In this document: piece by piece, positions 30,719-55,459 of the stretch
Position numbering within the stretch: the stretch's first letter is position 1
How the letters are laid out: every line of letters starts with the position of its first letter
Origin: a virus
IMG/VR virus record: IMGVR_UViG_3300025674_000021
Span: 1-64,000 of that record
Direction: 5' to 3' (one strand)
Length of the DNA: 64,000 bases
Program-made: the position numbers and the translations under genes
Notes under the pieces: generated by a model
The model's database searches: none
What the model was told of the DNA's origin: nothing
The model's input: the letters and a program-made list of their open reading frames with translations, nothing else

Positions 30719-32554
30719 ATGGGTTGGTCTAGTAAATATAAAAAATCAATTGATTGTAAGAACCCAAAAGGTTTTTCTCAAAAAGCACACTGCCAAGGCA
30801 AAAAGAAAATGAATGAGCAAATGACTCAGCAAAATAAAGCTGAATACATGGCGCAACGGTTACTTAATAAGGCGAGAGGTGTTGCCGCCAAATATGATGC
30901 TGCCAAAAAAGCGGCAAAAGATGTGAAAACAACATCTGGTAGTGTAACCATTCCCGAAGAAACTTGTCCTGTTTGTGCATTTGACCCTTGCCAATGCCTT
31001 GAAAGTACTATTACTGAAAAACGTGATGGCAAATCTTCCAAAGATCCTGGATATTCTCTTCGTGACTGGTTCAAAGGTGGTGGATGGGTTCAGGCTGGTG
31101 GTAAGTATGATGGAAAACCTTGTGCTAAACAACCAGGACAAAAAACTAAACCTTTCTGTCGTGATGCAGACGATCGTGCTGCAATGAGTAAGATTGAAAG
31201 AAACAAAAGAGCTGCTAAAAAACGCAAAGAAGATCCAAATCCTGATAGGAAAGGGAAGGCAAAGAACGTGAAACAAGAATCTTTTTCAAACTGGAGAGCA
31301 GACTTAGAGCAACTTGATGAAATGGGTCTTGCCAATGCAATTAGAGTTGGTGGGGCAGTAGGTGCGGCTATTGGTGGAGGAGTTTTAGTTAATAAAGCAA
31401 AAGAATCGGCGCAGAGATTGAGAAATGCTGCCGATAAGCGTATGGGCAAACCACCAACCTATCAAAAGAACTCATATCAACCAGAAGGTGAAAATATTCA
31501 AGAATTTGGTGGTTTGATAGATAGGGTGAAATCTGCTGGTAGAAAAGTAGCAGTCAAAACCGGCGAAAGAGTTGGTGAAAGAATAGGAAAAGAAAAGGCA
31601 GGTCCTATTGGTGGAATGATTGGTAAGGGAAGAGGTGGTAAAACTGGTGGAAAAGCTTACGATCAAGCTACCAGTGGAAACGTTGGTGGTGCAGTAAACA
31701 CTATTCGTGATGCACTGTCCAATTCATATGAACCAGAAGGTGGACTGGTTGATGAAGGCAAGAAAGACGCTTGCTATCATAAGGTTAAGTCGCGTTATTC
31801 TGTTTGGCCAAGTGCATATGCATCTGGTGCTTTAGTGAAGTGTCGTAAGAAAGGTGCTGCTAATTGGGGAAACAGCAAGAAAACTAGAAAAGAATCATTT
31901 GAATTTTCTAATTGGAGAGATGACTTTCAACCAACTGAATATGAATTTATTGACATTATTAAAACAACACCTATGAAAGGTCTTGCTGAAGCAAAGACAA
32001 AAGATCATGAGCATCAGATGGCAAGATCTGAAATCTCTAAAATTGTCTCTGCAGCAGGAAGATTAAAGAAAAAGGTAAAAGGTGAAGGGAACCTGAAGGC
32101 ATGGGTTCAATCAAAGATCACTAGAGCAGCAGATTATATTGATACTGCAGCAGATTATATGGATGGTCATGAGGGAAGTGATACTCATGAATCTGTAAAC
32201 GAAAAGTGTTGGGATGGATATGTTCAGAAGGGATTGAAGAAAAAAGGGAAGAGAATGGTTCCCAACTGCGTAAAAGAGTTTTCTGACTGGAGATCTGATA
32301 TTGAGGAAGGTGCTGCTTGGACTAGAAAAGAAGGAAAAAACAAATCAGGTGGATTGAATGAAAAAGGACGTAAGTCCTATGAGCGTGAGAATCATGGTTC
32401 AGACCTTAAAGCACCAAGTAAGAAGGTTGGAAATCCTCGCCGCAAATCATTCTGTGCAAGAATGAAAGGGATGAAAGCAAAACTTACTTCGAAAAAAACT
32501 GCTAGCGATCCAGATAGCAGAATTAACAAATCACTCAGAGCTTGGAACTGCTGA
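30719..32554 (+). CDS. Modular basic protein; putative capsid-internal polyprotein
   Basis: Basic modules separated by repeated acidic linkers (FS[ND]WRxD x3, NSY[QE]PEG x2) ending in [ILVM]xE; TAAATA at 30688. Confidence 0.75.
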   Translation: MGWSSKYKKSIDCKNPKGFSQKAHCQGKKKMNEQMTQQNKAEYMAQRLLNKARGVAAKYDAAKKAAKDVKTTSGSVTIPEETCPVCAFDPCQCLESTITEKRDGKSSKDPGYSLRDWFKGGGWVQAGGKYDGKPCAKQPGQKTKPFCRDADDRAAMSKIERNKRAAKKRKEDPNPDRKGKAKNVKQESFSNWRADLEQLDEMGLANAIRVGGAVGAAIGGGVLVNKAKESAQRLRNAADKRMGKPPTYQKNSYQPEGENIQEFGGLIDRVKSAGRKVAVKTGERVGERIGKEKAGPIGGMIGKGRGGKTGGKAYDQATSGNVGGAVNTIRDALSNSYEPEGGLVDEGKKDACYHKVKSRYSVWPSAYASGALVKCRKKGAANWGNSKKTRKESFEFSNWRDDFQPTEYEFIDIIKTTPMKGLAEAKTKDHEHQMARSEISKIVSAAGRLKKKVKGEGNLKAWVQSKITRAADYIDTAADYMDGHEGSDTHESVNEKCWDGYVQKGLKKKGKRMVPNCVKEFSDWRSDIEEGAAWTRKEGKNKSGGLNEKGRKSYERENHGSDLKAPSKKVGNPRRKSFCARMKGMKAKLTSKKTASDPDSRINKSLRAWNC

Positions 32555-32556
32555 TC

Positions 32557-32880
32557 ATGTCAAAAAACAATCAAATAACAGAAAACGTTAGTATTCAAGG
32601 TGACTTCAATGGAACTTTGAATATTAATTCTCCGTCAGAACAACAACAAAATTTTGGTGAGGATTATACTGCTGATATAGTTTGGCAAGGAAATCTTTAT
32701 CGTATGGATATTAATAGTAAAGGTGTTCCTTCAAAACAAGATCTTGGAGAACAACTTCAAGGTGATTATCCAGGTGCGATAGTACATAATATTTACCCAT
32801 CAAATACAATCAATAACAATACTATGAGAATTACTGGAATCAAAAGATATCAACCAGAGAGATTGACTTGGGGAGAATGA
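32557..32880 (+). CDS. Hypothetical protein (start probably ATG 32557)
   Basis: YTADIVWQGNLYRM...YPGAIVHNIYP. Confidence 0.7.
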   Translation: MSKNNQITENVSIQGDFNGTLNINSPSEQQQNFGEDYTADIVWQGNLYRMDINSKGVPSKQDLGEQLQGDYPGAIVHNIYPSNTINNNTMRITGIKRYQPERLTWGE

Positions 32881-32883
32881 TTT

Positions 32884-34239
32884 ATGGCACAGTGGAATAA
32901 AAATATACAAGATTATCTCAATCAAGAGAGGACTCTTTTTGAAGTTTTTATGTGTGCCGATAGATACGGCAATATTGGAAACTGTGGAGTAACTTCTGGA
33001 CCTACCAGTGGTGGGTCTGATGCTTTTGGTAGGATGAGAGTATCCGACACTTTCACTCTTGCCGACTATTCTCATATTTATGGTGAAGAGGTAGAACTTC
33101 TTACAAAGACTGTTGGTGCAGCATCAACAACTGAGGTAAATCCAAATACAGCATCTATTGCCCTGATTGTTGGAACTGGTGCAACAGATCAGGTGATTCA
33201 CCAGTCCAGAATGTATCACCACTACATGCCTGGTAAGTCACAGTTTGTGCTTACTAGTTTTAACTTCACCGATGTAAGAGAAAATACTACGAAGAAGATT
33301 GGATATTTTGATGATAGAAATGGAGTATTTGTTCAACAGGAGGGAGACGGAACTGTTTCTGTTGTAAGACGATCATATAACACGGGAATTACCAGTGATA
33401 CAGTTGTCAATCAATCCGATTGGAATCTGGATAAGTTAGATGGAACAACTCTTTCTGGTATTAATATAGATTTCACAAAAACCCATCTGTTTGCAGCAGA
33501 CTTTCAGTGGTTAGGTGTTGGTAGAGTTCGTTGTGGATTTGTCATCGGTGGACAGATGATTTATTTCCACGAGTTTAATCATTCCAACATTGAAGAACAC
33601 GCATACTGGTCACTCCCATCTCTTCCCATTCGTTGTGAGGTTGCTAATACTGGAGCTGCTGTGGGTATTACATCAATGGAACAAATCTGCTCCACTGTAA
33701 TGAGTGAGGGTGGATATGTTGAGACTGGTGTTGAGTTTGCTGCCTTTGATGGTCCAATATCTTTTTCCAGTGCTGGTGGTGCGACTGCGAGACAGTGTGT
33801 TATGGCAATTCGTTGTAAGAACACATTTAAGGGAATTCCAAACAGAACAACTGTAAGAGTAACTGACATTGAAGTTTTGAGTGATTCTACAAATTGCAGA
33901 ATTGAACTTTGGAGATTACCTGGAAATAGTAATATTACTGGTGGAACTTGGGTGGATGCTGATAATGATTCAGCAGTTGAATATAATGTCACGGTAGGGA
34001 CTAACTTCACAACAACTGGTGGAGATTTGAGACAGGCAACTTTGATTGCTGCTAATAATCCATCAGGTAAACAAGCATCTGCTAGTGTTGCATTTAATCC
34101 AACGACTGCTAGAAGATCTTACATAGCACAAAATATTGACTCTAATGATAGTAATATTTTTGCTGTTATTGTGAATAATCTAGATACTAATACGACAACC
34201 GATGTCTTTAATACTATTCAGTGGCGAGAAACCAGATAG
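32884..34239 (+). CDS. Beta-rich hypothetical protein, possibly virion structural
   Basis: 451 aa; DAFGRMRVS, YMPGKSQ, DFQWLGVGRVRCGF motifs seen in phage proteins; function unknown. Confidence 0.7.
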   Translation: MAQWNKNIQDYLNQERTLFEVFMCADRYGNIGNCGVTSGPTSGGSDAFGRMRVSDTFTLADYSHIYGEEVELLTKTVGAASTTEVNPNTASIALIVGTGATDQVIHQSRMYHHYMPGKSQFVLTSFNFTDVRENTTKKIGYFDDRNGVFVQQEGDGTVSVVRRSYNTGITSDTVVNQSDWNLDKLDGTTLSGINIDFTKTHLFAADFQWLGVGRVRCGFVIGGQMIYFHEFNHSNIEEHAYWSLPSLPIRCEVANTGAAVGITSMEQICSTVMSEGGYVETGVEFAAFDGPISFSSAGGATARQCVMAIRCKNTFKGIPNRTTVRVTDIEVLSDSTNCRIELWRLPGNSNITGGTWVDADNDSAVEYNVTVGTNFTTTGGDLRQATLIAANNPSGKQASASVAFNPTTARRSYIAQNIDSNDSNIFAVIVNNLDTNTTTDVFNTIQWRETR

Positions 34240-34249
34240 GTAATTTTTT

Positions 34250-35938
34250 ATGAGTGACAACGTTTATCTTGGTAATCCCAATCTTAAGAAAGCTAATACC
34301 CCTATTCAATTTACAGAAGAAAATGTAATTGAATATCTTAAGTGTAGAGATAATCCAATTTATTTTGCAAAAAACTATGTTCAGATTGTATCTCTCGATA
34401 AGGGTCTAGTCCCTTTTGAGATGTACCCTTTTCAGGAAAAATTAATTCAAAATTTCCATGATAATAGGTTTAATATCTGTAAGATGCCACGTCAAACTGG
34501 TAAATCTACAACTTGTGTTTCATATCTGCTGCATTACCTTATTTTTAACGACAATGTTAACATCGGGATTCTAGCAAACAAAGCACCAACTGCGAGAGAG
34601 ATTCTTGGTAGGTTACAACTTGCTTACGAAAACTTGCCAAGATGGATGCAGCAGGGTATCATATCATGGAATAAAGGATCGGTTGAATTAGAAAATGGCA
34701 GTAAAATATTGGCATCTTCTACGTCTGCAAGTGCTGTCAGAGGTATGTCGTTTAACATCCTCTTTCTCGACGAGTTCGCGTTCGTCCCAAATCACATTGC
34801 TGACTCGTTCTTTGCATCTGTTTATCCTACTATTACGTCTGGTAAATCAACCAAAGTAATTATTGTCTCAACGCCACACGGTATGAATCATTTCTACCGT
34901 ATGTGGCACGATGCGGAAAGAGAGAAGAACGAATACGTACCAACAGAAGTTCATTGGTCAGAAGTTCCTGGAAGAGACCTTGAATGGAAGGAACAAACGA
35001 TTGCAAACACTTCTGAACAGCAGTTCAAAGTTGAGTTTGAATGCGAATTCTTAGGATCGATCAATACTCTGATCAATCCAGCAAAATTAAAAAACCTTGT
35101 ATACGAAGACCCTATAAAGAGAAACAAAGGTCTAGACATATATGAAGGTCCAAAAGAAGATCACGAATATCTAATTACAGTTGACGTTGCTCGGGGTATG
35201 GGCAATGACTATTCAGCATTCATTATATTTGATATAACGCAGTTCCCGTATAGAGTTGTAGGTAAATATAGGAATAATGAAATCAAACCGATGCTGTTTC
35301 CAAGCATCATTGAGGATGTTGCAAAGGGATATAATCAGGCATGGTTATTGATTGAAGTCAATGATATTGGTGATCAAGTTGCCAGTATTATGCACTTTGA
35401 TCTTGAATACGACAATGTATTGATGTGTGCAATGAGAGGTCGTGCAGGTCAAGTTGTAGGTACAGGATTTAGTGGTAAGAAGTCCCAACTTGGTGTCAGA
35501 ATGACATCTGCAGTTAAGAAGTTGGGATGTTCAAACCTGAAAACTTTGCTGGAAGACGATAAGCTTCTTACAGTTGACTACGATATTATTGCAGAACTTA
35601 CAACATTCTCACAAAAACACAATTCTTTCGAAGCAGAAGACGGTTGTAATGATGACCTTGCAATGTGTCTTGTCATCTTTTCTTGGTTAGTTGCTCAGGA
35701 TTACTTCAGAGAAATGACGGACAATGATGTCCGAAAGAGAATTTACGAAGAGCAGAAAAATCAGATAGAACAAGACATGGCACCTTTTGGTTTTGTTCTT
35801 GATGGAATAGATGACGAAGGAACATTTGTAGAGAAAGAAACTGGTGATGTATGGGTTTCGTCAGGAAAAGAGAACCCTTTAGACACCTGGAATGTAGATG
35901 AATATGGTGATAGATCATACATGTGGGACTATAGGTGA
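34250..35938 (+). CDS. gp17: Terminase large subunit gp17
   Basis: YLGNPNLK, Walker A PRQTGKS, LDEFAF, STPHGMNHFY, DDLAMCL. Confidence 0.97.
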   Translation: MSDNVYLGNPNLKKANTPIQFTEENVIEYLKCRDNPIYFAKNYVQIVSLDKGLVPFEMYPFQEKLIQNFHDNRFNICKMPRQTGKSTTCVSYLLHYLIFNDNVNIGILANKAPTAREILGRLQLAYENLPRWMQQGIISWNKGSVELENGSKILASSTSASAVRGMSFNILFLDEFAFVPNHIADSFFASVYPTITSGKSTKVIIVSTPHGMNHFYRMWHDAEREKNEYVPTEVHWSEVPGRDLEWKEQTIANTSEQQFKVEFECEFLGSINTLINPAKLKNLVYEDPIKRNKGLDIYEGPKEDHEYLITVDVARGMGNDYSAFIIFDITQFPYRVVGKYRNNEIKPMLFPSIIEDVAKGYNQAWLLIEVNDIGDQVASIMHFDLEYDNVLMCAMRGRAGQVVGTGFSGKKSQLGVRMTSAVKKLGCSNLKTLLEDDKLLTVDYDIIAELTTFSQKHNSFEAEDGCNDDLAMCLVIFSWLVAQDYFREMTDNDVRKRIYEEQKNQIEQDMAPFGFVLDGIDDEGTFVEKETGDVWVSSGKENPLDTWNVDEYGDRSYMWDYR

Positions 35939-35954
35939 CTAAAAAGGTCTAAAT

Positions 35955-35962
35955 TATAAATA
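35955..35962 (+). promoter_or_regulatory. T4 late promoter
   Basis: TATAAATA upstream of gp18. Confidence 0.75.
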
Positions 35963-35999
35963 TTTCTAGATTAATTCTGGTTTTGTAGGAGAGTAAAAG

Positions 36000-40935: not shown

Positions 40936-41586
40936 ATGAAACTCATAACAGAAGAAGTATCTAACGTAAAAATTATTACCGAAGGTAAAGGTAGCGGTAA
41001 AAAGATGTACATTGAAGGTGTATTCCTTCAAGGCGACATCAAAAACCGTAACGGAAGAATGTATCCAATGGATACTCTTTCGAAAGAAGTAAATCGCTAT
41101 TGCGAAACTTTCGTTAATAAGGGTCGTGCTCTTGGTGAGTTGGGACATCCTGATGGACCAACTGTAAATCTTGACCGTGTGTCCCACAAGATTACTTCTT
41201 TGGTTAGAGAAGGTTCTAATTTTAAAGGTAAAGCACAACTTCTAAATACACCGATGGGCAAAATTGCTTCATCACTTATTGGTGAGGGAGTTATGCTTGG
41301 TGTTTCTTCCCGTGGTGTTGGTTCACTTAAGACCACTAGCGAAGGACACAAAATCGTTGGCGAAGATTTCATGCTAGCAACTGCTGCTGATATCGTTGCC
41401 GATCCTTCTGCACCTGATGCGTTTGTTCAGGGAATTATGGAAGGAAAGGAGTGGATTTGGGATGGAGGAATCCTTCGTGAACAACTCGCTGAGCGTACAG
41501 AAAGAAGAATTAATACTCTTGTTGCACAGAGAGCACTTGAAGAGCATAAGCTAAATCTATTCCAAGATTTCCTCTCAAATCTCTAA
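40936..41586 (+). CDS. gp21: Prohead core protease gp21
   Basis: MKLITE, KNRNGRMYP, ALGELGHP, GVSSRGVGS, DIVADPSAPDAFV. Confidence 0.96.
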   Translation: MKLITEEVSNVKIITEGKGSGKKMYIEGVFLQGDIKNRNGRMYPMDTLSKEVNRYCETFVNKGRALGELGHPDGPTVNLDRVSHKITSLVREGSNFKGKAQLLNTPMGKIASSLIGEGVMLGVSSRGVGSLKTTSEGHKIVGEDFMLATAADIVADPSAPDAFVQGIMEGKEWIWDGGILREQLAERTERRINTLVAQRALEEHKLNLFQDFLSNL

Positions 41587-41629: not shown

Positions 41630-42772
41630 ATGTCCGTTGGTAGCAATTTACAAGAAATGGAAAACGTAGTAACCAAAGGGGCAGCTGCTGCCGATCCAAT
41701 GCCAAGTTCTGGTTCTAATGCATCTGGAGTCATGGCTCCTGGTCAAACCGGTAACTGGGAAGATCTCGGCGGTCCTACTCCTGAAAATTATCGTCCAGAC
41801 GACGAGTCCGCAACACTTAAGACCCCAGGTTCAACATTGTCTCAAGTAAGAGACGTTGTTAATGCTAAGGCAAAACCTGCTGATCCTATGCCTAAGGGTA
41901 TGAAGGAAGAGGAAGAGGTAGAAGGTGAAGTCGTGGCAGAAGAGGATGCAGTTAGTGAAGAAGAAACTACCACGGAAGTTGTAGCAGAAGAAGAAGAAGT
42001 CGAAACTGAAACCGAAGAAGTAATTGAGTATGATGTCGAAGAAGACATCAATGCTCTGATTGCAGGCGAAGAACTCTCTGAGGAATTCGAAGAGAGAGCA
42101 CGTACTATCTTTGAAACTGCAATTAACGCTAAGGTTGCTGAGATCAAAGAAGAACTCGTAGCATCCTACGAAGCATCCCTCGTAGAGGAAGTTTCTTCAA
42201 TTAAAACCGAACTCACTGATCGTGTCGATGCATACCTTGAGTATGTTGCAGACGAGTGGATTTCTGAGAATTCAATCGCTGTAGAGCACGGTCTTAAGAC
42301 CGAAATGACTGAATCATTCCTCTCCGGAATGAAGTCACTTTTTGAAGAACATTATGTAACCGTTCCTGAAGATAAGTATGATGTAATCGAGAGTATGGTA
42401 GATAAACTTGATGAAATGGAAGGAAAACTCAACGAGCAGATCGAACGTAATGTCGCTCTGAATCGTAGATTAGCAGAGTCAGTTGCTGATGTAATTTTTG
42501 CAGATGTCGCTGAGGGATTAGCAATTTCTCAGAAAGACAAACTCGCTTCTCTTGCTGAAAATGTTGAGTTTGATAGTGAAGAGAGCTATCGTGAGAAACT
42601 GGTAACACTGAGAGAATCATATTTCCCAGTTAATACCGGTGCTCAGAAAGAGGATTCTGAGAATCTGTCTGAAGAAGTAACTTTGACCGAAGAGACCGAA
42701 ATGATCTCTGAGGGAGCAACAAACGCAATGGATGCTTATCTTCAGGTACTTCGCAGATCCGCGAACAAGTGA
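41630..42772 (+). CDS. gp22: Prohead core scaffold protein gp22
   Basis: Glu-rich; LSEEFEERARTIFETA, VDAYLEYVADEW; between gp21 and gp23. Confidence 0.93.
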   Translation: MSVGSNLQEMENVVTKGAAAADPMPSSGSNASGVMAPGQTGNWEDLGGPTPENYRPDDESATLKTPGSTLSQVRDVVNAKAKPADPMPKGMKEEEEVEGEVVAEEDAVSEEETTTEVVAEEEEVETETEEVIEYDVEEDINALIAGEELSEEFEERARTIFETAINAKVAEIKEELVASYEASLVEEVSSIKTELTDRVDAYLEYVADEWISENSIAVEHGLKTEMTESFLSGMKSLFEEHYVTVPEDKYDVIESMVDKLDEMEGKLNEQIERNVALNRRLAESVADVIFADVAEGLAISQKDKLASLAENVEFDSEESYREKLVTLRESYFPVNTGAQKEDSENLSEEVTLTEETEMISEGATNAMDAYLQVLRRSANK

Positions 42773-42826: not shown

Positions 42827-44242
42827 ATGCAGATGTACAACACCGAATATCTGCAGGAGAAGTGGTCACCAATCCTCGATTACGAGGGTATGGATCCTAT
42901 CAAAGATTCACATCGTAGAGCGGTAACTGCTATCCTGCTGGAAAACCAAGAAAAAGAATTACGCGAGGAAAGAGCATTCCTTAGCGAGAATGGCCCAACC
43001 AACTCCGCAGGAACAGGCGGATTCTCTGGTTCAGGCGCAAACACAACAGGAACCCCTGTTGCAGGTTTCGATCCCGTACTGATCTCCCTGATCCGTCGTT
43101 CGATGCCTAACCTGGTCGCTTATGACCTCTGTGGCGTTCAGCCAATGAACGGTCCTACCGGACTGATCTTTGCAATGCGCTCCCGCTACAACAACCAGAC
43201 CGGTGCAGAGACCTTCTACAACGAAGTCGATTCCGCATTCTCTGGTCAGGCAAAAGGACTCGCATACGAAGACGGCTTCACCGATGGTGCAGTTGGTCTG
43301 GGTACAACCGCACAAGGCGGAAGCAACCCATCAATCCTTGATCCTTCTAACCAAGCAAATAACGCAGGTCCTGGTGCTAACCAGTACAACGCTGGCGGCG
43401 GCATGACCACCGGCAAAGCAGAAGCACTCCGTGGCGACGACGCTGATGCTTTCAACGAGATGGCATTCTCGATTGAGAAACTGACCGCAACTGCTAAGTC
43501 AAGAGCACTGAAAGCAGAATACTCCCTGGAACTGGCACAAGACCTCAGAGCAATCCACGGTCTGAATGCTGAAGCAGAACTCGCAAACATCCTCAGCACT
43601 GAGATTCTTGCTGAGATCAACCGCGAGATCATCCGTACCATCTACAAGGTCGCAGTTCCTGGCGCACAGGTCAACACCGCAACCCCTGGAACCTTCGACC
43701 TCGACGTTGACTCCAACGGCAGATGGTCTGTTGAGAAGTTCAAGGGTCTGATCTTCCAGATCGAAAGAGATGCTAACGCAATCGCGCAGCAAACTCGTAG
43801 AGGGAAGGGCAACATGATCCTCTGCTCCGCAGACGTTGCTTCCGCACTCACCATGGCAGGCGTTCTGGATTACACCCCTGCACTCAACGCTAACCTCCAG
43901 GTTGACGACACCGGTAACACCTTCGCTGGTGTTCTGCAAGGTAAGTATCGTGTATACATCGATCCTTATTCTGCAAACGTTTCTGGTAACCAGTTCTATG
44001 TTGCTGGTTATAAGGGAACCAACCCTTATGACGCAGGTCTCTTCTACTGCCCATACGTTCCTCTCCAGATGGTTCGTGCAGTTGGCGAGAACACCTTCCA
44101 GCCTAAGATTGGCTTTAAGACCCGCTATGCGGTCGTCGCAAACCCATTCGCAAAAGGCGCTACCGAAGCATCTGCTCCAGACAACATCGCAACCAACTCC
44201 AACGTATACTACAGAAGAGTCAAAGTCCAAAATCTTATGTGA
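42827..44242 (+). CDS. gp23: Major capsid protein gp23
   Basis: LIRRSMPNLVAYDLCGVQPMNGPTGLIFAMR, FQPKIGFKTRY; predicted gp21 cleavage after FLSE. Confidence 0.98.
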   Translation: MQMYNTEYLQEKWSPILDYEGMDPIKDSHRRAVTAILLENQEKELREERAFLSENGPTNSAGTGGFSGSGANTTGTPVAGFDPVLISLIRRSMPNLVAYDLCGVQPMNGPTGLIFAMRSRYNNQTGAETFYNEVDSAFSGQAKGLAYEDGFTDGAVGLGTTAQGGSNPSILDPSNQANNAGPGANQYNAGGGMTTGKAEALRGDDADAFNEMAFSIEKLTATAKSRALKAEYSLELAQDLRAIHGLNAEAELANILSTEILAEINREIIRTIYKVAVPGAQVNTATPGTFDLDVDSNGRWSVEKFKGLIFQIERDANAIAQQTRRGKGNMILCSADVASALTMAGVLDYTPALNANLQVDDTGNTFAGVLQGKYRVYIDPYSANVSGNQFYVAGYKGTNPYDAGLFYCPYVPLQMVRAVGENTFQPKIGFKTRYAVVANPFAKGATEASAPDNIATNSNVYYRRVKVQNLM

Positions 44243-44263
44243 TCACAGTCACATATTTCTCAG

Positions 44264-44289
44264 AGGGATCCTTCGGGATCCCTTTTTTT
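44264..44289 (+). terminator. Rho-independent terminator after gp23
   Basis: AGGGATCC-TTCG-GGATCCCT + T run, immediately followed by TAAATAAATA (late promoter). Confidence 0.88.
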
Positions 44290-44313
44290 GTCTAAATAAA
44301 TAAGAAAGCTCCA

Positions 44314-44514
44314 ATGGAAGAAAATGATTGGTCGGTTGATTGGACATTAGATGTTCATAAAGTCAGAGCACTTTATGATGTCATACACTATACCTGGGAA
44401 AATTGGCCAGGATATCCAGCAAGACCAAAAGAAGAACAGGAGTTTTTAATATCGACCAAATCTGAACTTTTTGCAATGTTAATGGATTACACTTTCAAGA
44501 CGAAAAATCAATGA
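44314..44514 (+). CDS. Hypothetical protein
   Basis: 66-aa ORF with WPGYPARPKEEQEFL; late promoter upstream. Confidence 0.7.
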   Translation: MEENDWSVDWTLDVHKVRALYDVIHYTWENWPGYPARPKEEQEFLISTKSELFAMLMDYTFKTKNQ

Positions 44515-45296
44515 GAACGTTTAAAGAATTTCAATATATTTGCGAAAGATCCCTTTCTAAGTGTGAAAAAGACAGAAAAGAAGGTATTACCAAAGGCATG
44601 AAGAAGAATGCTTCTGACTTTAAAGATCGTTATGGTGGCAATTGGAAAGGAGTTATGTACGCTACTGCCACCAAGATGGCAAAGAAATCTAAGTGTAAGA
44701 AGGATGTTAAAGAATTTTGGAATCCATTAGCAAAACCAAAAGCAAAACCTGCTGTAAAGAAAAAAAATTCTACTGTTTTAGCATATAAAAACTATAAACC
44801 AGGAGTTCTTAACAAAGATACTGGAAAATTTACTCAACGTGATCATACACCAGATGAAGCAAAGAGATATGGTTGGAAACCAGTAAAGACAAGTTCTTAT
44901 GGTCCCAGAGATACTACATCTCAGGCATATAATACTGGAAAAGATAAAGTTCAAAGAACTGCAGATGGAACTCCATTTACAGGGTCTACAAGAGGTGTAG
45001 CAGTTCCATATAAGTATAAAAAGAATGAAGTTCCTAAAGGTGTTTGGGCAGGAACACCATCAAGGAAATTTGGATCTGATGTGACATTTACAAATAAACC
45101 ACTTGGAAATGCTCCAGGAAAAACTAAAACTGTTACCACTAAAGTAAGAGATACTGGAAACTTTGGTGCTGCTGGTGAAGTTAATAAAAGTACTAGTTTT
45201 GATTTGATGAGGCAAACAGCAAGAGATTTATCTGGTAATCAAAAACTCACACCAACACAATGGGGAAAAAGAACCGTTTACGTGAGGTCTAACTAA
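44511..45296 (+). CDS. Putative capsid-targeted protein with C-terminal RlpA-like (double-psi beta-barrel) domain
   Basis: N-terminal MRTFKEFQYICE; C-terminal SSYG..TADGTPF..VAVP..FGS.V..VRDTG.F..FDL...ARDL..G...V. Confidence 0.7.
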   Translation: MRTFKEFQYICERSLSKCEKDRKEGITKGMKKNASDFKDRYGGNWKGVMYATATKMAKKSKCKKDVKEFWNPLAKPKAKPAVKKKNSTVLAYKNYKPGVLNKDTGKFTQRDHTPDEAKRYGWKPVKTSSYGPRDTTSQAYNTGKDKVQRTADGTPFTGSTRGVAVPYKYKKNEVPKGVWAGTPSRKFGSDVTFTNKPLGNAPGKTKTVTTKVRDTGNFGAAGEVNKSTSFDLMRQTARDLSGNQKLTPTQWGKRTVYVRSN

Positions 45297-45829: not shown

Positions 45830-46258
45830 ATGGACCTTGAAAAAATTCAATCTATGTGGGAAAGGGACTCTCAGATGGATCGGGATAACTTGCATGAAGA
45901 GTCATTGAGAATCCCTCAACTTCATTCAAAATATCATACTGTATACAATACGATTCAACTTCTCAAAGAAAATTCTAAAACAAAGTATAACAAGATTCGC
46001 CTAGAACGCTATAACTACTACACAGGAAAGGCATCAGCAGAGGTCTACGCTGAAGAACCATTTCCGTATAAGATTCGTGAAAAGGACGCCATACAGAGGC
46101 ATCTAGACGCCGATGAGAGGTTGAATGAAGCAGAATTAAAGATTCGGTATTATGATGTTACTTTAAAGTACCTTGAAGACATTATTAAGTCAATTAATAA
46201 TAGGACTTATCAGATCAAAAACGCAATTGATTGGCATAATTTCCAGGCAGGTTTTTAA
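45830..46258 (+). CDS. uvsY: Recombination mediator UvsY
   Basis: ESLRIPQLHSKY, YYTGKA, RTYQIKNAIDW. Confidence 0.92.
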   Translation: MDLEKIQSMWERDSQMDRDNLHEESLRIPQLHSKYHTVYNTIQLLKENSKTKYNKIRLERYNYYTGKASAEVYAEEPFPYKIREKDAIQRHLDADERLNEAELKIRYYDVTLKYLEDIIKSINNRTYQIKNAIDWHNFQAGF

Positions 46259-46282
46259 TAAATAAAAATAAACCTTCTGACG

Positions 46283-47971
46283 ATGATTACTTTTCAGCAG
46301 TTTGATGAAAATGCTAGGGCAGCGTTAAAACTGCTGAAAGCGACTAATAGAATTGTTGGTGGGAAAAATGTTGGTTCTTTGGGAAGAGCAAGATATAAAG
46401 CTTTATCAGTAGGACCAAGCAGAAGTATAGTTGGATTAGATCGTCAAAGAAGAAATGCATCTGATGCAGCAGCATTTAGAAAAGCAAACTTCCCTAGAAC
46501 TCAAACTGGAGGTACTAGACAAAGATTTAATACGACAGGTGAAAAGAATAAGTTTAGTAGAACTGTGGCAACTTCATACCCGTCACAATCTTCATATGCA
46601 AAAGATATGGTTCCTGCAAAACAATTGGAAAGTGGTGGAAGAATTCGTTCAACATCTGAACGTTCTCAATATCTGAAAAGATTGAAAAGACAAATGGGTG
46701 GGACAAGAACACGAAGAGGAGTTCATGCTGTTGATGTTCTCCCAAGAGGGGATTTCATGAAAAATGATCCAAAACAATTAATTACTAGAGGAAAAGAATA
46801 TCATAAAGCAGTATCAGATATACCAAATGAAGTTAAAGGGTTTGGAGCAAAACGAGGAGATAAGATTGTAGGAACCGCATCGGAAGTTATGCCCGGTTCA
46901 ACAAATATAGAGAGGGGAAAACAAAATCGCAGATCATTATATCGAAGAGTTCTTGGTGCAACAAAACAAGACCCTATTACAAGAAAACAAGTTGCTACTA
47001 TTAAAGATGAGTTTGAACATCTTGATGAAAATGCAAGAGCAGCATTAAAACTACTGAAATCTGCTAATAAAATTATTGGTGGTAGAAAAGTAGGCATAGT
47101 GCAGAAAGCATTGAAATCAAATCGTGCCGTATTGTCTAGGGCAGAAAGAGGTCAGAAATTTTCGCAGTCAGCAGATAAGATTACTTCTGACACACGTTCA
47201 ATGAATATCACAAGATCAGCATCAAGAAAAGCAGGATTTAGTGGTGGTGCAAATATAAACAGAAAAGATTTTAAAACTTCAACAAAAGAATATACAACAT
47301 ATCCAGAAAAAGGTGGTTTAGATTATCATCCTCGACATAATACACAGGTTGATACAAATATCAGCACCGTTCCATCGGGTAGAGTTGCGGCAATTTCTGC
47401 AAATACTACAGCAAAAAGACCAGTTCCAAAATCTGTTGGGCGTGGAAGACGAGTACCAAGAACAGAAAAATTAGTAGGGAAATTAAAAGAATATCGTCGT
47501 AGAGTTAGGAGGACTGGAGGAAATGAGAGAAATCCAGTTCATAAGATAGATTTTATTCAAAGAAGTGATGCAGATATATGGAAGAATGATTTGGACAAAT
47601 ATGCGTTCAAACGTGCTAGAAATTTTAGAAGAGCACAAGAAAATTTACCAAAAGATTTAAAAGCAGCAGGAGCAAAACCAAAAGATATTGTTCAAGGAAT
47701 TCCCTCTGTTATGATGAGAGGAGAAACATCAAAAGGTGTTGGAAAACGTGCAGAACTTTATAAAAATCGTTATGGTCATCGCGTAACTGATTTAGATCCT
47801 ACAAGAAGGACAACTGGTGTGATTGGCAGTGCTGGAGGAGAACTTCCACCAGGAAAGAAAATGAGAGGTAGAAAACCGCAGAGAAGAAGAACAAGAACAG
47901 GTCCTACAGATCGATCTTCTGCACAGGCAATGATGGATAGAACCCAGAGAAACATTTTATCAGATCGATAA
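46283..47971 (+). CDS. Arg/Lys-rich protein made of two homologous units; putative capsid-targeted polyprotein
   Basis: [FL]DE-NARAALKLLK occurs twice (46301, 47021); AATAAATA at 46257. Confidence 0.75.
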   Translation: MITFQQFDENARAALKLLKATNRIVGGKNVGSLGRARYKALSVGPSRSIVGLDRQRRNASDAAAFRKANFPRTQTGGTRQRFNTTGEKNKFSRTVATSYPSQSSYAKDMVPAKQLESGGRIRSTSERSQYLKRLKRQMGGTRTRRGVHAVDVLPRGDFMKNDPKQLITRGKEYHKAVSDIPNEVKGFGAKRGDKIVGTASEVMPGSTNIERGKQNRRSLYRRVLGATKQDPITRKQVATIKDEFEHLDENARAALKLLKSANKIIGGRKVGIVQKALKSNRAVLSRAERGQKFSQSADKITSDTRSMNITRSASRKAGFSGGANINRKDFKTSTKEYTTYPEKGGLDYHPRHNTQVDTNISTVPSGRVAAISANTTAKRPVPKSVGRGRRVPRTEKLVGKLKEYRRRVRRTGGNERNPVHKIDFIQRSDADIWKNDLDKYAFKRARNFRRAQENLPKDLKAAGAKPKDIVQGIPSVMMRGETSKGVGKRAELYKNRYGHRVTDLDPTRRTTGVIGSAGGELPPGKKMRGRKPQRRRTRTGPTDRSSAQAMMDRTQRNILSDR

Positions 47972-49461: not shown

Positions 49462-49462
49462 T

Positions 49463-49979: not shown

Positions 49980-50009
49980 GAACATATACTACGCGGTTAA
50001 GTAAATGTC

Positions 50010-50486
50010 ATGCCTAAGAAGAAGACAGAACACTATGTAAACAACAAAGAGTTGCTACAAGCACTGATTGTTTACAGAGAACAACTGGAAGAGTCCAAGA
50101 AGAATGGACTTCCGAAACCGCGAGTTACTAATTACCTTGGTGAGTGCTTCTTTAAGATCGCTACTCGCCTTTCATACAAACCAAACTTTGTCAATTATAT
50201 GTTCCGAGAAGACATGATCTCGGATGGTATTGAGAACTGTGTTGAGTATATTCATAATTTTGATCCAGCAAAGTCATCCAATCCATTTGCATACTTCACT
50301 CAAATTATTCATTACGCTTTTTTGAGACGTATTCAGAAAGAGAAGAAGCAGTTAGAGATCAAAGCAAAGATCATTGAACGAACAGGTTTCGATGAAGTTA
50401 TGATGGTAGATGATAACTCGCTTTCAGGTCATACTTCAGAATACAATTCTATTAAAGATCAAATCCAGTACAGGAATAATCGATGA
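50010..50486 (+). CDS. gp55: Late transcription sigma factor gp55
   Basis: HYVNNKE, PNFVNYMFREDMISDGIENC, NPFAYFTQI. Confidence 0.95.
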   Translation: MPKKKTEHYVNNKELLQALIVYREQLEESKKNGLPKPRVTNYLGECFFKIATRLSYKPNFVNYMFREDMISDGIENCVEYIHNFDPAKSSNPFAYFTQIIHYAFLRRIQKEKKQLEIKAKIIERTGFDEVMMVDDNSLSGHTSEYNSIKDQIQYRNNR

Positions 50487-51517: not shown

Positions 51518-51518
51518 T

Positions 51519-51785
51519 ATGTTTCTTCTAACCGTCAAAGATAATAAAGATGACGGTGCATATGCCGTTCAAGATAGGTATGGTCATAAAGTTCTCTTCC
51601 TCTTTCAAGAGGAAGATGATGCTACAAGATACTCACTTATGCTTGAAGACGAAGAAGGAACCTATATGGATGTAGTTGAAGTTGACGATGATTTGGCGAT
51701 AAAGACGTGTAAACTGCACAACTATAAGTATGCAGTGATTACTTCTAATGATATTGTAATTCCTCCTAAAAATGATAAACTTTAA
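51519..51785 (+). CDS. Conserved hypothetical protein
   Basis: GAYAV...LFQEEDDATRYSLML; between gp47 and gp46. Confidence 0.75.
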   Translation: MFLLTVKDNKDDGAYAVQDRYGHKVLFLFQEEDDATRYSLMLEDEEGTYMDVVEVDDDLAIKTCKLHNYKYAVITSNDIVIPPKNDKL

Positions 51786-53484
51786 GAAAATCCGTTATCG
51801 CAATTTCTTATCAACCGGAAATCAGTTTATTGAAATTAACTTCCAGCAAAATAGTACTAATCTGATTGTTGGAACTAATGGGTCTGGTAAGTCAACTATA
51901 TTAGATGCACTGACCTTTGTTCTGTTTAATAAACCATTCCGTAAGATCAACAAACCTCAACTTGTCAACAGTGTAAATGAGAAGGACTGTGTAGTTGAGA
52001 TTGAATTCGATGCAAACGGAAGACAATACTTAGTTCGCAGAGGTATCAAACCTAATGTGTTTGATATTGTCATGGATGGAAGCATCTTGCATAAAGAAGC
52101 AGATGATAGATCTAATCAAAGAATTCTTGAACAAAATATTCTCAAGTTAAATTACAAATCATTTACGCAGATTGTAATCTTAGGTAGTAGTACGTTTGTT
52201 CCTTTCATGCAACTTACTACTGCAAACAGACGTGAAGTTATTGAAGATCTTCTGGATATTAGAATATTTTCTTCTATGAGTTCTTTGATTAAGGAGAACC
52301 TTCGATACGAGAAAGATCAAATCAAATCTCTGGATCTTAAGAAGCAAACTCTGAAAGAAAAAGCAAAGATGCAGATCGAGTTCATTGAAGAACTTGAGAA
52401 CCGTGGTAAGCAGCAGATAGAATCTAACAGTAAAAAAATTGATGATCTTGATGAGGAGATTGTTGTTGCAAACTTAGAGAATGAGAAGAAGCAAAAAGAG
52501 TTAGAAAGTAAAGTTAAAGAACAAGAAAAACTAACTGGGTTCTCTGATAAGTTAGTAAAACTTAACAATATGAAGGGAAAAATTTCTCAAAAAGTTTCAA
52601 CGATTACTGAAGAGTATAACTTCTTTAAGGAAAATACGGTTTGCCCTACCTGTACTCAGGATATTGAAGAATCATTTAGAGTAAATAGAATTAGTGATGC
52701 TCAAAATAAGGCAAAAGAACTTAAAGATGGTTATGTTGAACTTGAGAAAACAATTAAGTCAGAACAAGAGAGAGAGCGTCAATTCAATGCCCTATCCAAG
52801 GAGATTACTAAATTAACGCATGGCATTTCTCAAAACAATACTCGGATTCAGTCCAACAGACGCCAAGTCCGAGATCTGGAATCGGAAATTCAAACAATTA
52901 CCGACAACCTTGCAAACAGAAATACTGAACATGAGAAGTTAGAAGAGTTTAAGAAAAATCTCCAGCAGACAATTGAAGATCTCTCAGAAAGAAAACAAGA
53001 AGTCGTTTATTACGATTTTGCCTATTCCTTACTTAAGGACGATGGCGTAAAAACAAAAATCATCAAGAAATATCTCCCTCTGATTAATCAACAGGTTAAT
53101 CGATATCTACAAATGATGGAGTTCTTCATCAACTTTAAACTTGACGAAGAATTTAATGAGTCAATCGAATCTCCTATTCATGAATCATTTTCTTATAGTT
53201 CATTCAGTGAAGGTGAAAAAATGAGAATCGATTTATCTTTGCTCTTCACTTGGAGAGAAGTTGCGAAGGTAAAAAATTCTGTCAATACCAACCTGTTGAT
53301 TATGGATGAGGTGTTCGACTCTTCGCTTGATGGATTCGGTACAGAAGAGTTCCTTAAAATTATTAGATATATAATAAAGGATGCAAATATTTTTGTTATA
53401 TCTCACAAAGTGGGATTAGAGGAAAAATTTGAGTCCGTAATCAAATTCCAAAAACAAAAAGGATTTTCGCAGAAACTAAAATGA
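51772..53484 (+). CDS. gp46: Recombination endonuclease subunit gp46 (Rad50/SbcC-like)
   Basis: GTNGSGKST, CPTC zinc hook, FSEGEKMRIDL, DEVFDSSLD. Confidence 0.96.
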   Translation: MINFKKIRYRNFLSTGNQFIEINFQQNSTNLIVGTNGSGKSTILDALTFVLFNKPFRKINKPQLVNSVNEKDCVVEIEFDANGRQYLVRRGIKPNVFDIVMDGSILHKEADDRSNQRILEQNILKLNYKSFTQIVILGSSTFVPFMQLTTANRREVIEDLLDIRIFSSMSSLIKENLRYEKDQIKSLDLKKQTLKEKAKMQIEFIEELENRGKQQIESNSKKIDDLDEEIVVANLENEKKQKELESKVKEQEKLTGFSDKLVKLNNMKGKISQKVSTITEEYNFFKENTVCPTCTQDIEESFRVNRISDAQNKAKELKDGYVELEKTIKSEQERERQFNALSKEITKLTHGISQNNTRIQSNRRQVRDLESEIQTITDNLANRNTEHEKLEEFKKNLQQTIEDLSERKQEVVYYDFAYSLLKDDGVKTKIIKKYLPLINQQVNRYLQMMEFFINFKLDEEFNESIESPIHESFSYSSFSEGEKMRIDLSLLFTWREVAKVKNSVNTNLLIMDEVFDSSLDGFGTEEFLKIIRYIIKDANIFVISHKVGLEEKFESVIKFQKQKGFSQKLK

Positions 53485-53615
53485 GCATGATTAAAATTTT
53501 CGGTCTCGCGGTAGTATTCGGACTACTAGGTGCGGGATTCCAGCATGGCAACATGCACCTTTACAATAGTATGGTTCCACATGTCCATGAGAATGGAGTG
53601 ATTCATTCTCACTGA
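53481..53615 (+). CDS. Small membrane/signal peptide protein with His-rich C-terminus, 44 aa; not in ORF track
   Basis: MSMIKIFGLAVVFGLLGAGFQHGNMHLYNSMVPHVHENGVIHSH; ATGA overlap with gp46 stop; terminator follows. Confidence 0.55.
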   Translation: MSMIKIFGLAVVFGLLGAGFQHGNMHLYNSMVPHVHENGVIHSH

Positions 53616-53626
53616 TGGTTCTAGAT

Positions 53627-53652
53627 AACGCCCCAATAAGGAGCGTTTTTTT
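53627..53652 (+). terminator. Probable terminator
   Basis: AACGCCCC-aataa-GGAGCGTT + T run. Confidence 0.6.
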
Positions 53653-53659
53653 ATAAATA
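53652..53659 (+). promoter_or_regulatory. T4 late promoter
   Basis: TATAAATA upstream of 53687. Confidence 0.75.
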
Positions 53660-53686
53660 TTTGAAAATAGTGTTCAAATAAAACCA

Positions 53687-55459
53687 ATGTATAATAAGAC
53701 CGAACGTGAGTTACTTGAGTTATACAAATCTGTTTACAACGAAGATACAGAGATAAAGGGTCTTCTGATTGAACTTTGTGAGAATTTTGAGTATGGTAAT
53801 AGTTTAGAAGAGAGAGCAGAATTTGTTGGAGGTGTAATCAAAGATGAGTGCATCTTTGAATTCTTAGATCTGGTTTCAGATGTATTTGAGATTGAGATCA
53901 AAGAAACCTTAACTGAAGGAATTGACCTGACAGAAAGAGCTGCATTAGTCAGAGGTCTTGTTAATGCACTTAGCAGAGGTGCTAGGAATAAAGCACTCAA
54001 GACAGCAGGAACTGCTGCAATGGGTAAGAGTGGTAACGTAATTAAAGGTGGTGCAGCATCTTCTAGCGTTAGAGCAGCAAGATCTGCAAGAGGTGCTACT
54101 ACAGCAGCAACTAGAGCACCTGGTGGACCAGCAGCAGCGGCAAATGTTAAGAAAGCTGCTGATATTAGTGGAGCAACAAAACGACTTCCTGCTAAAGGTG
54201 GAAGTGGCGCAAATAGTGTTAATGCTATTGCTCAGCGTAATACTACAAAGACCAGGCAGGCAGTTAACCAAATGCAGACCTTCCTTGGTGGTCTTAAGAA
54301 GACCATGAGGCAAAGTGCTGCTGCAGACAAGCTTGCTAAGGCAAAAGTAGGATCTACTGGTACTGGCGTTAAGGCAGCACTTCCTGGTGCAGCACCAAAA
54401 GCAGCACTTCCTGGTGCAAAGGGAACTGTTACACCTTTGAAGACAACTGCACAAGTAGGTGGTCCTATTGGTCAAAGAACTATCAAGAAACCAGGTGCTG
54501 GACTTCCAAGACAGGCACCAAAACCTGAATGGGGCAAAGGTGGATCAGGTAATTCTGGAATTCCAAAACCACCAAGACAACCAGGTGGTGCAATGACTAA
54601 GAGACCATCTAGCAGTATTGCAACTCCTGGTGTTCAGAAGGTCAAAGTCAAGGACATGGGTCCAACTGGAAGATCTGCTACTGACAAGGGAGGAAGAACT
54701 CTCAAAGGTGATGGTGTAATTGATGTAACTGCGAAGACAGTTTCTTCTAGAAAAACTACTGCACAACGTCTTAAGGATCTAGCAAGAGCTGTTAAAAATA
54801 ATAAAGGTAAGGTTGCAGCTGGTGCTGCTATTGCTGGTGGAGCAGCACTTGGTTTAGCTACCGGAGATGGTAAGAAAACTGCTTCGGGAGATACCGCTCC
54901 TACTACTCCATCTACAGCACCTGCATCTAAGGGTAAAACTGAAACTGGACTGGCGAATATTCCTCCTGCTGAGGGTCCAGTGAACAATCCAAATTATGGA
55001 AAACCTGGTTCCAAGGATAAGGCACCTGCACCTAAGGCACCTACTGGCGGAGGATCTAAAGCACCTACTGGCGGAGGATCTAAAGCACCTACTGGCGGAG
55101 GATCTAAAGCACCTACTGGCGGTGGTTCCAAGGCACCTGAAACCAAGAAGCCTGAATCTAAGGGAACTCCAAAGATGTCAAAAATGCAGCGGGATGCTGC
55201 AGAACTTCGTCAAATGAGAAAGAGATCTCAGGAGCGTATTATCGCTCAAGGTGGTACACCAGCAACTCCTCTTGTAAAAGATGATGTAGATGTATTTGAA
55301 ATCATCAAGGGTTACCTGATCGATGAAGGTTATGCTGGTAGTGAAGAGGCAGCACTCATCATCATGACTAACATGAGTGGAGCATGGCAAGAGAAAATCA
55401 TTGAGTCCTCCTGTGGAGGTGGTCACTCCAAGAAAAAGAAAAAGAAGAAGGGATATTGA
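53687..55459 (+). CDS. Low-complexity Lys/Ala/Gly-rich protein flanked by acidic domains; putative capsid-internal protein
   Basis: Acidic N-terminus ending ..LTEGIDLTE, long basic core, acidic C-terminal YLIDEGYA..IMTNMS..IIE, then poly-Lys. Confidence 0.75.
   Translation: MYNKTERELLELYKSVYNEDTEIKGLLIELCENFEYGNSLEERAEFVGGVIKDECIFEFLDLVSDVFEIEIKETLTEGIDLTERAALVRGLVNALSRGARNKALKTAGTAAMGKSGNVIKGGAASSSVRAARSARGATTAATRAPGGPAAAANVKKAADISGATKRLPAKGGSGANSVNAIAQRNTTKTRQAVNQMQTFLGGLKKTMRQSAAADKLAKAKVGSTGTGVKAALPGAAPKAALPGAKGTVTPLKTTAQVGGPIGQRTIKKPGAGLPRQAPKPEWGKGGSGNSGIPKPPRQPGGAMTKRPSSSIATPGVQKVKVKDMGPTGRSATDKGGRTLKGDGVIDVTAKTVSSRKTTAQRLKDLARAVKNNKGKVAAGAAIAGGAALGLATGDGKKTASGDTAPTTPSTAPASKGKTETGLANIPPAEGPVNNPNYGKPGSKDKAPAPKAPTGGGSKAPTGGGSKAPTGGGSKAPTGGGSKAPETKKPESKGTPKMSKMQRDAAELRQMRKRSQERIIAQGGTPATPLVKDDVDVFEIIKGYLIDEGYAGSEEAALIIMTNMSGAWQEKIIESSCGGGHSKKKKKKKGY
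55034..55129 (+). repeat. Four tandem 24-bp repeats encoding KAPTGGGS
   Basis: AA(A/G)GCACCTACTGGCGGAGGATCT x3 plus one synonymous variant. Confidence 0.9.

Follow-up and report, generated by a model that had tools for sequence, protein, structure and literature searches.

What do four strongly basic open reading frames (ORFs) scattered among the core genes of a T4-like cyanomyovirus encode, and how might their products reach the virion? We address this question for ORF1 to ORF4 of a 64,000-nucleotide stretch of viral DNA (positions 1 to 64,000 of IMG/VR record IMGVR_UViG_3300025674_000021; hereafter the window), whose closest isolate is Synechococcus phage S-SRM01 (Kyanoviridae), with ~81 % nucleotide identity across gp21-gp23 and identical gene order. 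In T4, a protein with a capsid-targeting sequence (CTS) is bound through it into the prohead's gp22 scaffolding core, after which gp21 clips the sequence off; that the T4 CTS carries diverse cargo is textbook knowledge. A sequence-only reading of the window had proposed that all four ORFs are capsid-targeted polyproteins cut by gp21 into small basic effectors. Our comparative analysis favors a narrower statement, to which we assign a probability of about 60 %: ORF2 and ORF3 are head-internal cargo, and ORF1 to ORF3 are fused units cut apart by gp21. The four ORFs lie where they had been placed and are very basic, with net charges (K+R minus D+E) of +36 to +77, whereas the core genes adjoining them are neutral or acidic.

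30719-32554, + strand: ORF1, 611 amino acids (aa), net charge +53
44511-45296, + strand: ORF2, 261 aa, net charge +36
46283-47971, + strand: ORF3, 562 aa, net charge +77
53687-55459, + strand: ORF4, 590 aa, net charge +45

ORF2 and ORF3 begin with counterparts of the T4 CTS, as had been proposed, and both N-termini were quoted correctly. In each the leader spans the first 9-12 residues; position 4 is aromatic, position 7 is aromatic or Leu, and then comes a hydrophobic-x-Glu end, which is I-C-E (aa 10-12) in ORF2 and F-D-E (aa 7-9, with Phe at P3) in ORF3. Two further ORFs of the genome, at 76132 and 84935, begin in the same way. The leaders of homologues end in I-Q-E, F-Q-E or L-N-E, and in other cyanophages the ORF2 and ORF3 homologues start with MKTFQEFQES, MKTFQQFQES, MKTFKQFQDLIE and VKTFNQFREE; the ORF2 leader compares with the MKTFKEF start of T4 IPI. 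The site class [ILVM]-x-E of the sequence-only reading holds as hydrophobic-x-Glu but is too strict in omitting Phe at P3 (F-x-E). In the T4 CTS residues 4 and 7 serve targeting and residues 8 and 10 processing (PMC9026906), which fits the positions conserved in the leaders of the window.

44511-44546, + strand: ORF2 leader, aa 1-12, M-R-T-F-K-E-F-Q-Y-I-C-E
46258-46309, + strand: ATAAATA late-promoter-like motif and ORF3 leader, aa 1-9, M-I-T-F-Q-Q-F-D-E

In three cyanophage genomes a degenerate DNA pattern encoding M-[KR]-T-[FY]-x-[QE]-F matched the starts of eight genes, all on the coding strand; the reverse strand and the control gave no match. In T4 it retrieved exactly ipI, ipII, ipIII and gene 61.1. 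With a stricter pattern we obtained at least 120 IMG/VR loci; 115 of 122 matches are the starts of ORFs of at least 30 aa, and the complete ORFs among them (n=108) are net basic in 93.5 % of cases and have a median length of 70 aa. T4-like core genes lie within the flanks (up to ~5 kb) of 59 of 120 such loci, which often occupy the same hot spots as the ORFs of the window. The leader pattern occurs far above chance, and we consider it quite probable that ORF2 and ORF3 are leader-targeted head proteins. A literature search that lacked many subscription papers returned no paper on a T4-type CTS in cyanophages.

Several of the leader-bearing proteins are observations in their own right. T4 gene 61.1 (667-831 of locus L022; 54 aa, hypothetical) starts with the CTS-like MKTFKEFIKE and is not annotated as an internal protein. 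A 533-aa ORF starting at 4442 of IMG/VR locus L143 joins a leader to a K-x-D-G ligase-like motif and an HxGH nucleotidyltransferase domain, a combination suggesting that cargo often includes enzymes with nucleic acids or nucleotides as substrates. Outside the window, positions 76132-77370 of the genome encode a 412-aa protein with the leader MRSFLEFVSE and an HxGH nucleotidyltransferase (cytidylyltransferase-like) domain, an orthologue of SSM1_190 of phage S-SM1.

Judged from its relatives, ORF3 is a fusion of two leader units in which the second, putative leader has been retained internally.

46310-47002, + strand: ORF3 unit 1, aa 10-240, a separate gene in S-SRM01
47003-47029, + strand: ORF3 internal leader, aa 241-249, K-D-E-F-E-H-L-D-E
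47030-47968, + strand: ORF3 unit 2, aa 250-562

The two halves correspond to the adjacent S-SRM01 genes gp167 and gp168, both of which start with MKTFQ[EQ]FQES (MKTFQEFQES in gp167, the counterpart of unit 1), and the ten residues following the internal leader are the same ten that follow the N-terminal leader. Unit 2 also occurs alone. In a metagenomic protein 97 % identical to it (P0129) MITFQQFDE directly precedes the unit, the called start lying 17 codons upstream; two further stand-alone proteins (P0131, P0132) begin with MITFQQFDE, and more than twenty distant stand-alone relatives (P0134-P0155) bear leaders of the MKTF or MKTFQEF type. A second fused form of 564 aa (P0130), 72 % identical over its whole length, has the junction E-E-F-E-Q-F-D-E; in this comparison the N-terminal 20 aa of ORF3 are 95 % conserved, the most conserved 20-aa stretch of the protein. 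The AlphaFold2 (AF2) model of unit 2 reached a predicted local distance difference test score (pLDDT) of 70 and gave no convincing fold match: the best Foldseek hit had E=0.08, rows for GNAT-like and RNase E DNase-I-domain folds stayed at VIA-align Z<=5.9, below the meaningful level, and the ESM Atlas returned only weak clusters of viral hypothetical proteins.

We located all of the tripeptides that had been quoted as processing sites: ICE at aa 10 of ORF2; LDE at 199, IQE at 260, VDE at 344, LAE at 422, VNE at 493 and IEE at 528 of ORF1; LDE at 247 of ORF3; and LTE at 75 and 81 and IIE at 571 of ORF4. In whole-protein shuffles ORF1 and ORF4 each had 12 sites against ~5.3 expected (P=0.003), and ORF2 and ORF3 showed no enrichment of hydrophobic-x-Glu. 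Under local-composition shuffles ORF1 (P~0.02) was the only nominally significant ORF, with ORF4 at P~0.1. Since motif counting is weak under local-composition shuffles, we built the case on comparative junctions instead, counting over distinct upstream contexts and against a background of 10.3 % hydrophobic-x-Glu in the same proteins.

The module DUF6321, found at 80 IMG/VR loci with 40 distinct upstream contexts, has a Glu 2-5 aa before its Ala-Trp anchor in 39 of the 40, and P3 is L, V, I or M in 28 of them (P~4e-19 against the background). Ahead of module B, hydrophobic-x-Glu lies within 0-4 aa upstream in 37 of 48 distinct contexts (P~2e-27 against the background), and two further modules have the same site arrangement with a short spacer. 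Conserved protease-type sites thus mark unit boundaries in 70-77 % of distinct contexts. ORF1, ORF2 and ORF3 are chains of units that are found elsewhere as separate proteins; similarity between stand-alone leader proteins and ORF1 modules A, B and DUF6321 and the first module of ORF2 starts right past the leader, and fused proteins have a leader-like or hydrophobic-x-Glu junction exactly where the stand-alone forms end their leader. At this comparative level, as judged from the leader pattern and the module junctions of homologues, the shared grammar that had been proposed is real for ORF1 to ORF3. It does not extend to ORF4, which belongs to a separate family and whose motif excess is explained by composition.

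ORF1 is a chain of ~8 small basic modules and belongs to the family T4-GC119 (phrog_727), whose genes range from 276 to 2985 nucleotides among cyanophages.

30722-30817, + strand: module A, aa 2-30, Trp-Ser-x-Lys-Tyr-Lys-Lys ... Cys ... His-Cys, then Met-Asn-Glu
31280-31321, + strand: linker 1, aa 188-201, leader-like F-x-x-W-R-x-D-L ... L-D-E
31469-31504, + strand: second-type linker, aa 251-262, N-S-Y-Q-P-E-G-x-x-I-Q-E
31721-31756, + strand: second-type linker, aa 335-346, N-S-Y-E-P-E-G-x-x-V-D-E, before a Cys-Tyr-His-Lys-Val-Lys module (aa 347-384)
31895-31948, + strand: linker 3, aa 393-410, leader-like F-S-N-W-R-D-D-F
32204-32278, + strand: module B, aa 496-520, Cys-Trp-x-Gly-Tyr ... Asn-Cys, after V-N-E
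32279-32308, + strand: linker 4, aa 521-530, F-S-D-W-R-S-D-I-E-E
32309-32551, + strand: C-terminal DUF6321 module, aa 531-611 (Pfam PF19846)

Module A alone forms a 51-aa protein with an MKTFKQFQEE leader in ~20 IMG/VR loci, with similarity to ORF1 starting at residue 11, directly past the leader, and module B alone follows the leader MKTFKQFTE in IMG/VR locus L063 (MKTFKQFTE-A-C-W). Linker 1 shares the F-x-x-aromatic ... hydrophobic-x-Glu pattern of N-terminal leaders. Linker 4 aligns with the N-terminal leaders MKSFKDLRSDITE (S-CAM3) and MKSFKQLRIDINE (Syn1) of stand-alone DUF6321 proteins. The linker N-S-Y-Q-P-E-G-x-x-I-Q-E directly precedes DUF6321 in other phages (L177, L183) and is also present in ORF 85781 of the genome; the Cys-Tyr-His-Lys-Val-Lys module is preceded in relatives by hydrophobic-x-Glu and a Gly-Lys-Lys or Gly-Glu-Lys spacer. 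The DUF6321 match itself covers aa 539-609 (E=1.5e-22; 80.5 bits against a cutoff of 28.5), and in podophage Lederberg, which lacks a gp21-type system, no leader precedes the domain. Shuffling of modules from protein to protein and from phage to phage, as had been suggested, is real: module order differs between ORF1 and its S-SRM01 orthologue, the S-SM1 member of the family (SSM1_115) starts with the first module of ORF2, and one metagenomic protein joins ORF1 module A to the C-terminal domain of ORF2. A sub-threshold match to microcin V (E=0.002) covers aa 280-329 of ORF1.

ORF2 consists of its leader, a 56-aa basic module, a V-K-E site before F-W-N-P and a C-terminal domain.

44547-44714, + strand: small basic module, aa 13-68, with V-K-E at its end, immediately ahead of Phe-Trp-Asn-Pro
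44775-45293, + strand: C-terminal double-psi beta-barrel domain, aa 89-261 (AF2 model, Foldseek)

The basic module alone is a 58-62-aa leader protein in S-8S55, S-PRM1 and locus L030, and without a leader it forms the N-terminus of SSM1_115. In single-module relatives of ORF2 a 16-residue leader ends in an I-Q-E that directly abuts Phe-Trp-Asn-Pro; among the 205 homologues of the C-terminal domain, most of those listed start with an MKTF or MKSF leader ending in I-Q-E. The predicted structure of this domain (AF2; pLDDT 89.2, predicted template modelling score (pTM) 0.79) has with high confidence a double-psi beta-barrel fold of the RlpA / expansin / MltA-like type. Its best Foldseek match is PA4485 (4avr; E=5e-5, template modelling (TM) score 0.73), and further matches include the baseplate protein of cyanophage A-1(L) (8kea_A), cerato-platanin, kiwellin, expansin, GH45 and MltA; Asp129 (within Asp-x-Gly-x-Phe-Gly) and Asp146, in domain numbering, are invariant. 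The description of the products as small basic effectors suits the basic modules but is too narrow for ORF2, which ends in this 170-aa barrel. ORF2, ORF3 and ORF4 had no Pfam, PADLOC or PDB sequence match above threshold, an HeH match of ORF4 being sub-threshold. In four metagenomic proteins (P0016, P0027, P0043, P0051) the ORF2-type barrel stands behind an N-terminal DUF3008-like module and other small modules, joined by the leader-like linker K-T-L-K-E-F-M-G-F-F-K-K-K-K; PF11450 is recorded for P0051 and P0052.

Proteomics of purified virions of S-SM1 (Sullivan et al. 2010) places a homologue of ORF1, together with leader-bearing proteins, in the particle. Detected were T4-GC119 of the ORF1 family (SSM1_115; 13 peptides), the GC190 cytidylyltransferase (SSM1_190; 25 peptides), GC1455 (SSM1_192; 7 peptides) and GC1454 (SSM1_191; 10 peptides) (PMC3037559 Table S8). 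SSM1_115 has no N-terminal leader and an internal L-S-F-Q-D-F-Q-E; SSM1_190 begins with MKKFSAFLNE, SSM1_192 begins with MLSFKELQE and has an internal leader-like copy, and SSM1_191 is Ala/Lys-rich with an architecture resembling ORF4. The strict leader pattern had no match in the S-SM1 genome. Looser leader-like N-termini stand on two of the virion-detected proteins, with only five loose matches in the genome, an enrichment that is suggestive at best.

The head machinery on which the scheme depends is encoded in the window, as Pfam matches bear out, and alignment of gp23 AFLSE (aa 50-54) to the T4 gp23 cleavage site SFLTE|AEIGG agrees with the FLSE processing site claimed for it. The window also encodes gp20 (Portal_T4 in Pfam), and gp22 has 27 hydrophobic-x-Glu sites against 16.6 expected.

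40936-41586, + strand: gp21 prohead protease, the proposed processing enzyme (Pfam Peptidase_S77, E=2.4e-36)
41630-42772, + strand: gp22 scaffolding core protein (Pfam T4_CASP, E=2e-78)
42827-44242, + strand: gp23 major capsid protein (Pfam Gp23), with a predicted maturation site L-S-E at aa 52-54

We infer from these comparisons how loading through leaders, cutting at internal junctions and the fate of the products would fit together. A chain would be loaded whole into the prohead through one or more leader-type elements, the fusion points of ORF1 to ORF3 having retained either a leader-like stretch or just its acidic hydrophobic-x-Glu end. Cutting by gp21 past the junction Glu would then release several small basic peptides or domains: from ORF2 a ~56-aa basic peptide and the double-psi beta-barrel domain, from ORF3 two paralogous proteins of ~230 and ~310 aa, and from ORF1 up to ~8 pieces, DUF6321 among them. 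The products may stay with the packaged DNA and would probably leave with it at infection. We give even odds to internal cleavage.

A number of observations weigh against this scheme. The N-termini of ORF1 and ORF4 lack the leader arrangement of ORF2 and ORF3, and the S-SRM01 orthologue of ORF1 and most long multi-module relatives are likewise without an N-terminal leader. Plain motif counts inside the four proteins are weakly enriched, and some junctions have no Glu site, among them the linker K-T-L-K-E-F-M-G-F-F-K-K-K-K before the ORF2-type domain; linker 3 of ORF1 has no clean hydrophobic-x-Glu. The Glu-Gly-Ala-Ala-Trp conserved before DUF6321 could be part of the domain. Compared with P0130, the internal junction of ORF3 is 75 % conserved against a protein mean of 72 %, no more than the rest, and the S-SM1 proteomics gives neither the place of the proteins within the virion nor their cut state. 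ORF4, finally, has neither a T4-type leader nor demonstrable homology to a virion-detected protein.

Some of these points would suit chains that are packaged and, after removal of the leader where there is one, remain whole, their junctions being relics of leaders or flexible acidic linkers. The unexceptional conservation of the ORF3 junction, the linkers without any Glu site and the weak motif counts agree with such chains, as does the cutting of T4 internal proteins only at their ends (PMC9026906). Relics would be expected to decay, however, and a junction Glu preceded at P3 by a hydrophobic residue is retained over 40-48 unrelated upstream contexts; junctions without leader-like sequence still hold the site. 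We regard uncut chains as unlikely. It is also conceivable that the proteins are not head cargo but basic DNA/RNA-binding or cell-wall-acting proteins working in the infected cell or in the tail or baseplate, with an N-terminus that serves translation efficiency or membrane association. The lack of localisation inside the virion in the S-SM1 data would allow this, the ORF2 domain resembles a cyanophage baseplate protein domain (8kea_A), and DUF6321 also occurs in podophages without gp21. Yet the leader agrees with the T4 CTS, as defined by experiment, at its key positions, is strongly linked to T4-like contigs and is missing on the podophage copy of DUF6321; leader-bearing enzymes are detected in virions, and internal copies of the leader speak against a role in translation start. 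We consider a function outside the head improbable, and head-internal cargo that would be cut at its junctions is our favored reading for ORF1 to ORF3.

ORF4 is a related but distinct class of protein in which an acidic cap is followed by a basic, histone-like core and a C-terminal module (C-module) that is conserved.

53687-53935, + strand: acidic N-terminal cap, aa 1-83, ending L-T-E, with the second-type signature at aa 1-22 (53687-53752)
53936-55183, + strand: basic low-complexity core rich in Ala/Gly/Lys/Pro/Thr, with four K-A-P-T-G-G-G-S repeats
55274-55411, + strand: conserved acidic helical C-module, aa 530-575
55430-55456, + strand: poly-Lys tail

The 45-aa C-module is matched by 1652 representative clusters (50 % identity) at E<=1e-3 and recurs in two more ORFs of the genome, 85781 (85781-87715) and 87801. 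The signature M-x(3-9)-[LM]-x-E-A-Y-x-x-[VI]-Y-x-x-x-E heads 60 of 93 long C-module proteins and is shared by ORF4, and its L-x-E-A-Y-x-x-V-Y core may represent a second class of virion-targeting leader. ORF4 had no PHROG match at E<=0.01; the C-module relatives that we tested match phrog_3708 (function unknown) and had no match in Pfam. Among isolates the family is found only in large Synechococcus phages, those that are named being T4-like cyanomyoviruses. We think that ORF4 is probably a virion protein, and we give nearly an even chance to the view that it alone is scaffold-like or DNA-condensing, a family of its own that loads via its N-terminal signature or C-module and to which the leader and gp21 scheme does not apply. 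The absence of a T4-type leader, the signature on the long members, the breadth of the C-module, the hydrophobic-x-Glu excess that vanishes under local shuffling and the presence in virions of the architecturally similar SSM1_191 all favor that view. Against it, ORF4 has no significant BLAST similarity to SSM1_191, and its cap terminates in a pair of L-T-E sites that directly precede a basic amphipathic helix, an arrangement also seen in ORF3, so that removal of the cap by gp21 stays plausible.

A Gly/Ala-rich helix, hydrophobic or amphipathic, recurs in otherwise unrelated cargo proteins, where it immediately follows predicted cleavage sites. Besides the positions given here, it is found in the genome ORFs 84935 and 85781.

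31322-31396, + strand: recurring helix in ORF1, aa 202-226
ORF3, + strand: recurring helix, aa 10-30 and aa 250-270
ORF4, + strand: recurring helix, aa 84-100

The closest known counterparts of the system are the T4 internal proteins IPI, IPII and IPIII (Mullaney and Black 1996; PMC9026906, PMC3012670). They too have an N-terminal M-K-T-[FY]-x-E-F ending in hydrophobic-x-Glu, followed by mostly basic mature parts that are unrelated to one another and differ widely from phage to phage; their genes occupy variable slots dispersed among core genes, T4 likewise encodes gp21 and gp22, and the identical DNA pattern retrieves both sets. The T4 proteins are, however, single units cut only at the leader, whereas the cyanophage proteins join two to eight units through internal junctions that are leader-like or hydrophobic-x-Glu. 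Position P3 is often Phe here, the host is a cyanobacterium, the system is known from sequence, and the cargo includes an enzyme-like double-psi beta-barrel in the window and a nucleotidyltransferase elsewhere in the genome. In phiKZ, 201phi2-1 and SPN3US a gp21-related protease also cuts after Glu at short motifs, with several sites per precursor and ejection proteins as products, but these precursors lose long propeptides and do not consist of strung-together independent cargo modules, the motif is A/S-x-E, and there is no T4-type 10-residue leader (PMC5694885, PMC9026906). T4 gp22, gp67 and gp68, which gp21 cuts into short peptides, similarly have many hydrophobic-x-Glu sites per chain; they are acidic scaffolds that are degraded and expelled, in contrast to the basic ORFs of the window, whose modules are conserved as genes of their own. 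Some phages carry cell-wall-degrading domains on internal virion proteins, as T7 does on gp16. Should the ORF2 domain act on peptidoglycan, ORF2 would by analogy be another capsid-carried wall-acting protein, although with a different fold and a different loading mechanism.

New here are the fused, junction-marked polyprotein architecture, the natural pairs of split and fused forms and the second candidate N-terminal signature. Tentatively, and with somewhat less than even confidence, we suggest a combinatorial cargo system in T4-like cyanophages, and probably in other marine T4-like phages, in which dozens of tagged modules are split and fused freely and the head protease cuts the fusions back to single peptides, with L-x-E-A-Y-x-x-V-Y as a second, hitherto undescribed tag for the ORF4-type family. 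If that is so, an injected proteome far larger than that of T4 would be readable from sequence. In the ocean, T4-like cyanophages rank with the most abundant viruses, and to our knowledge the presence of enzymes and of many proteins of unknown function in cyanophage particles has never been explained. Were the proposal true, the packaged and probably injected protein set would be predictable from the genome of any such phage, small ORFs of unknown function would gain a testable role, and T4 head loading, at present a tool for protein delivery, would be extended to new hosts. The natural split and fused pairs make the polyprotein architecture testable and would offer a natural system for studying the loading and release of cargo.

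All four ORFs occupy variable slots among the core genes. ORF1 lies between gp16 and gp17, ORF2 between gp23 and gp3, ORF3 between uvsY and uvsW, and ORF4 between gp46 and a gene whose 720-aa product corresponds to an S-SRM01 protein with a peptidase annotation. A late-promoter motif had been claimed upstream of each ORF, and this holds for three: TAAATA lies 24-35 nucleotides upstream of ORF1 (30689), ORF3 (46259) and ORF4. ORF2 has no such motif of its own and is coupled to a 66-aa ORF that does, the stop of which overlaps the ORF2 start; the gp23 terminator hairpin (44262-44285) is followed by CTAAATAAATA at 44292.

44292-44514, + strand: CTAAATAAATA late-promoter-like motif at 44292 and 66-aa ORF (44314-44514), 3' of the gp23 terminator
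53652-53659, + strand: TATAAATA late-promoter motif upstream of ORF4
55482-55501, + strand: terminator-like hairpin closing the ORF4 cassette

The structural region of the window also contains two giant ORFs, at 6002-17968 (3988 aa) and 19570-26868 (2432 aa). Terminator hairpins bracket accessory genes (44262-44302 and 55482-55501), the first directly preceding a late-promoter motif. Cassettes of promoter and stem-loop have reportedly been proposed as drivers of module exchange in T4-like phages, and the sets of hairpin and promoter in the window resemble them.

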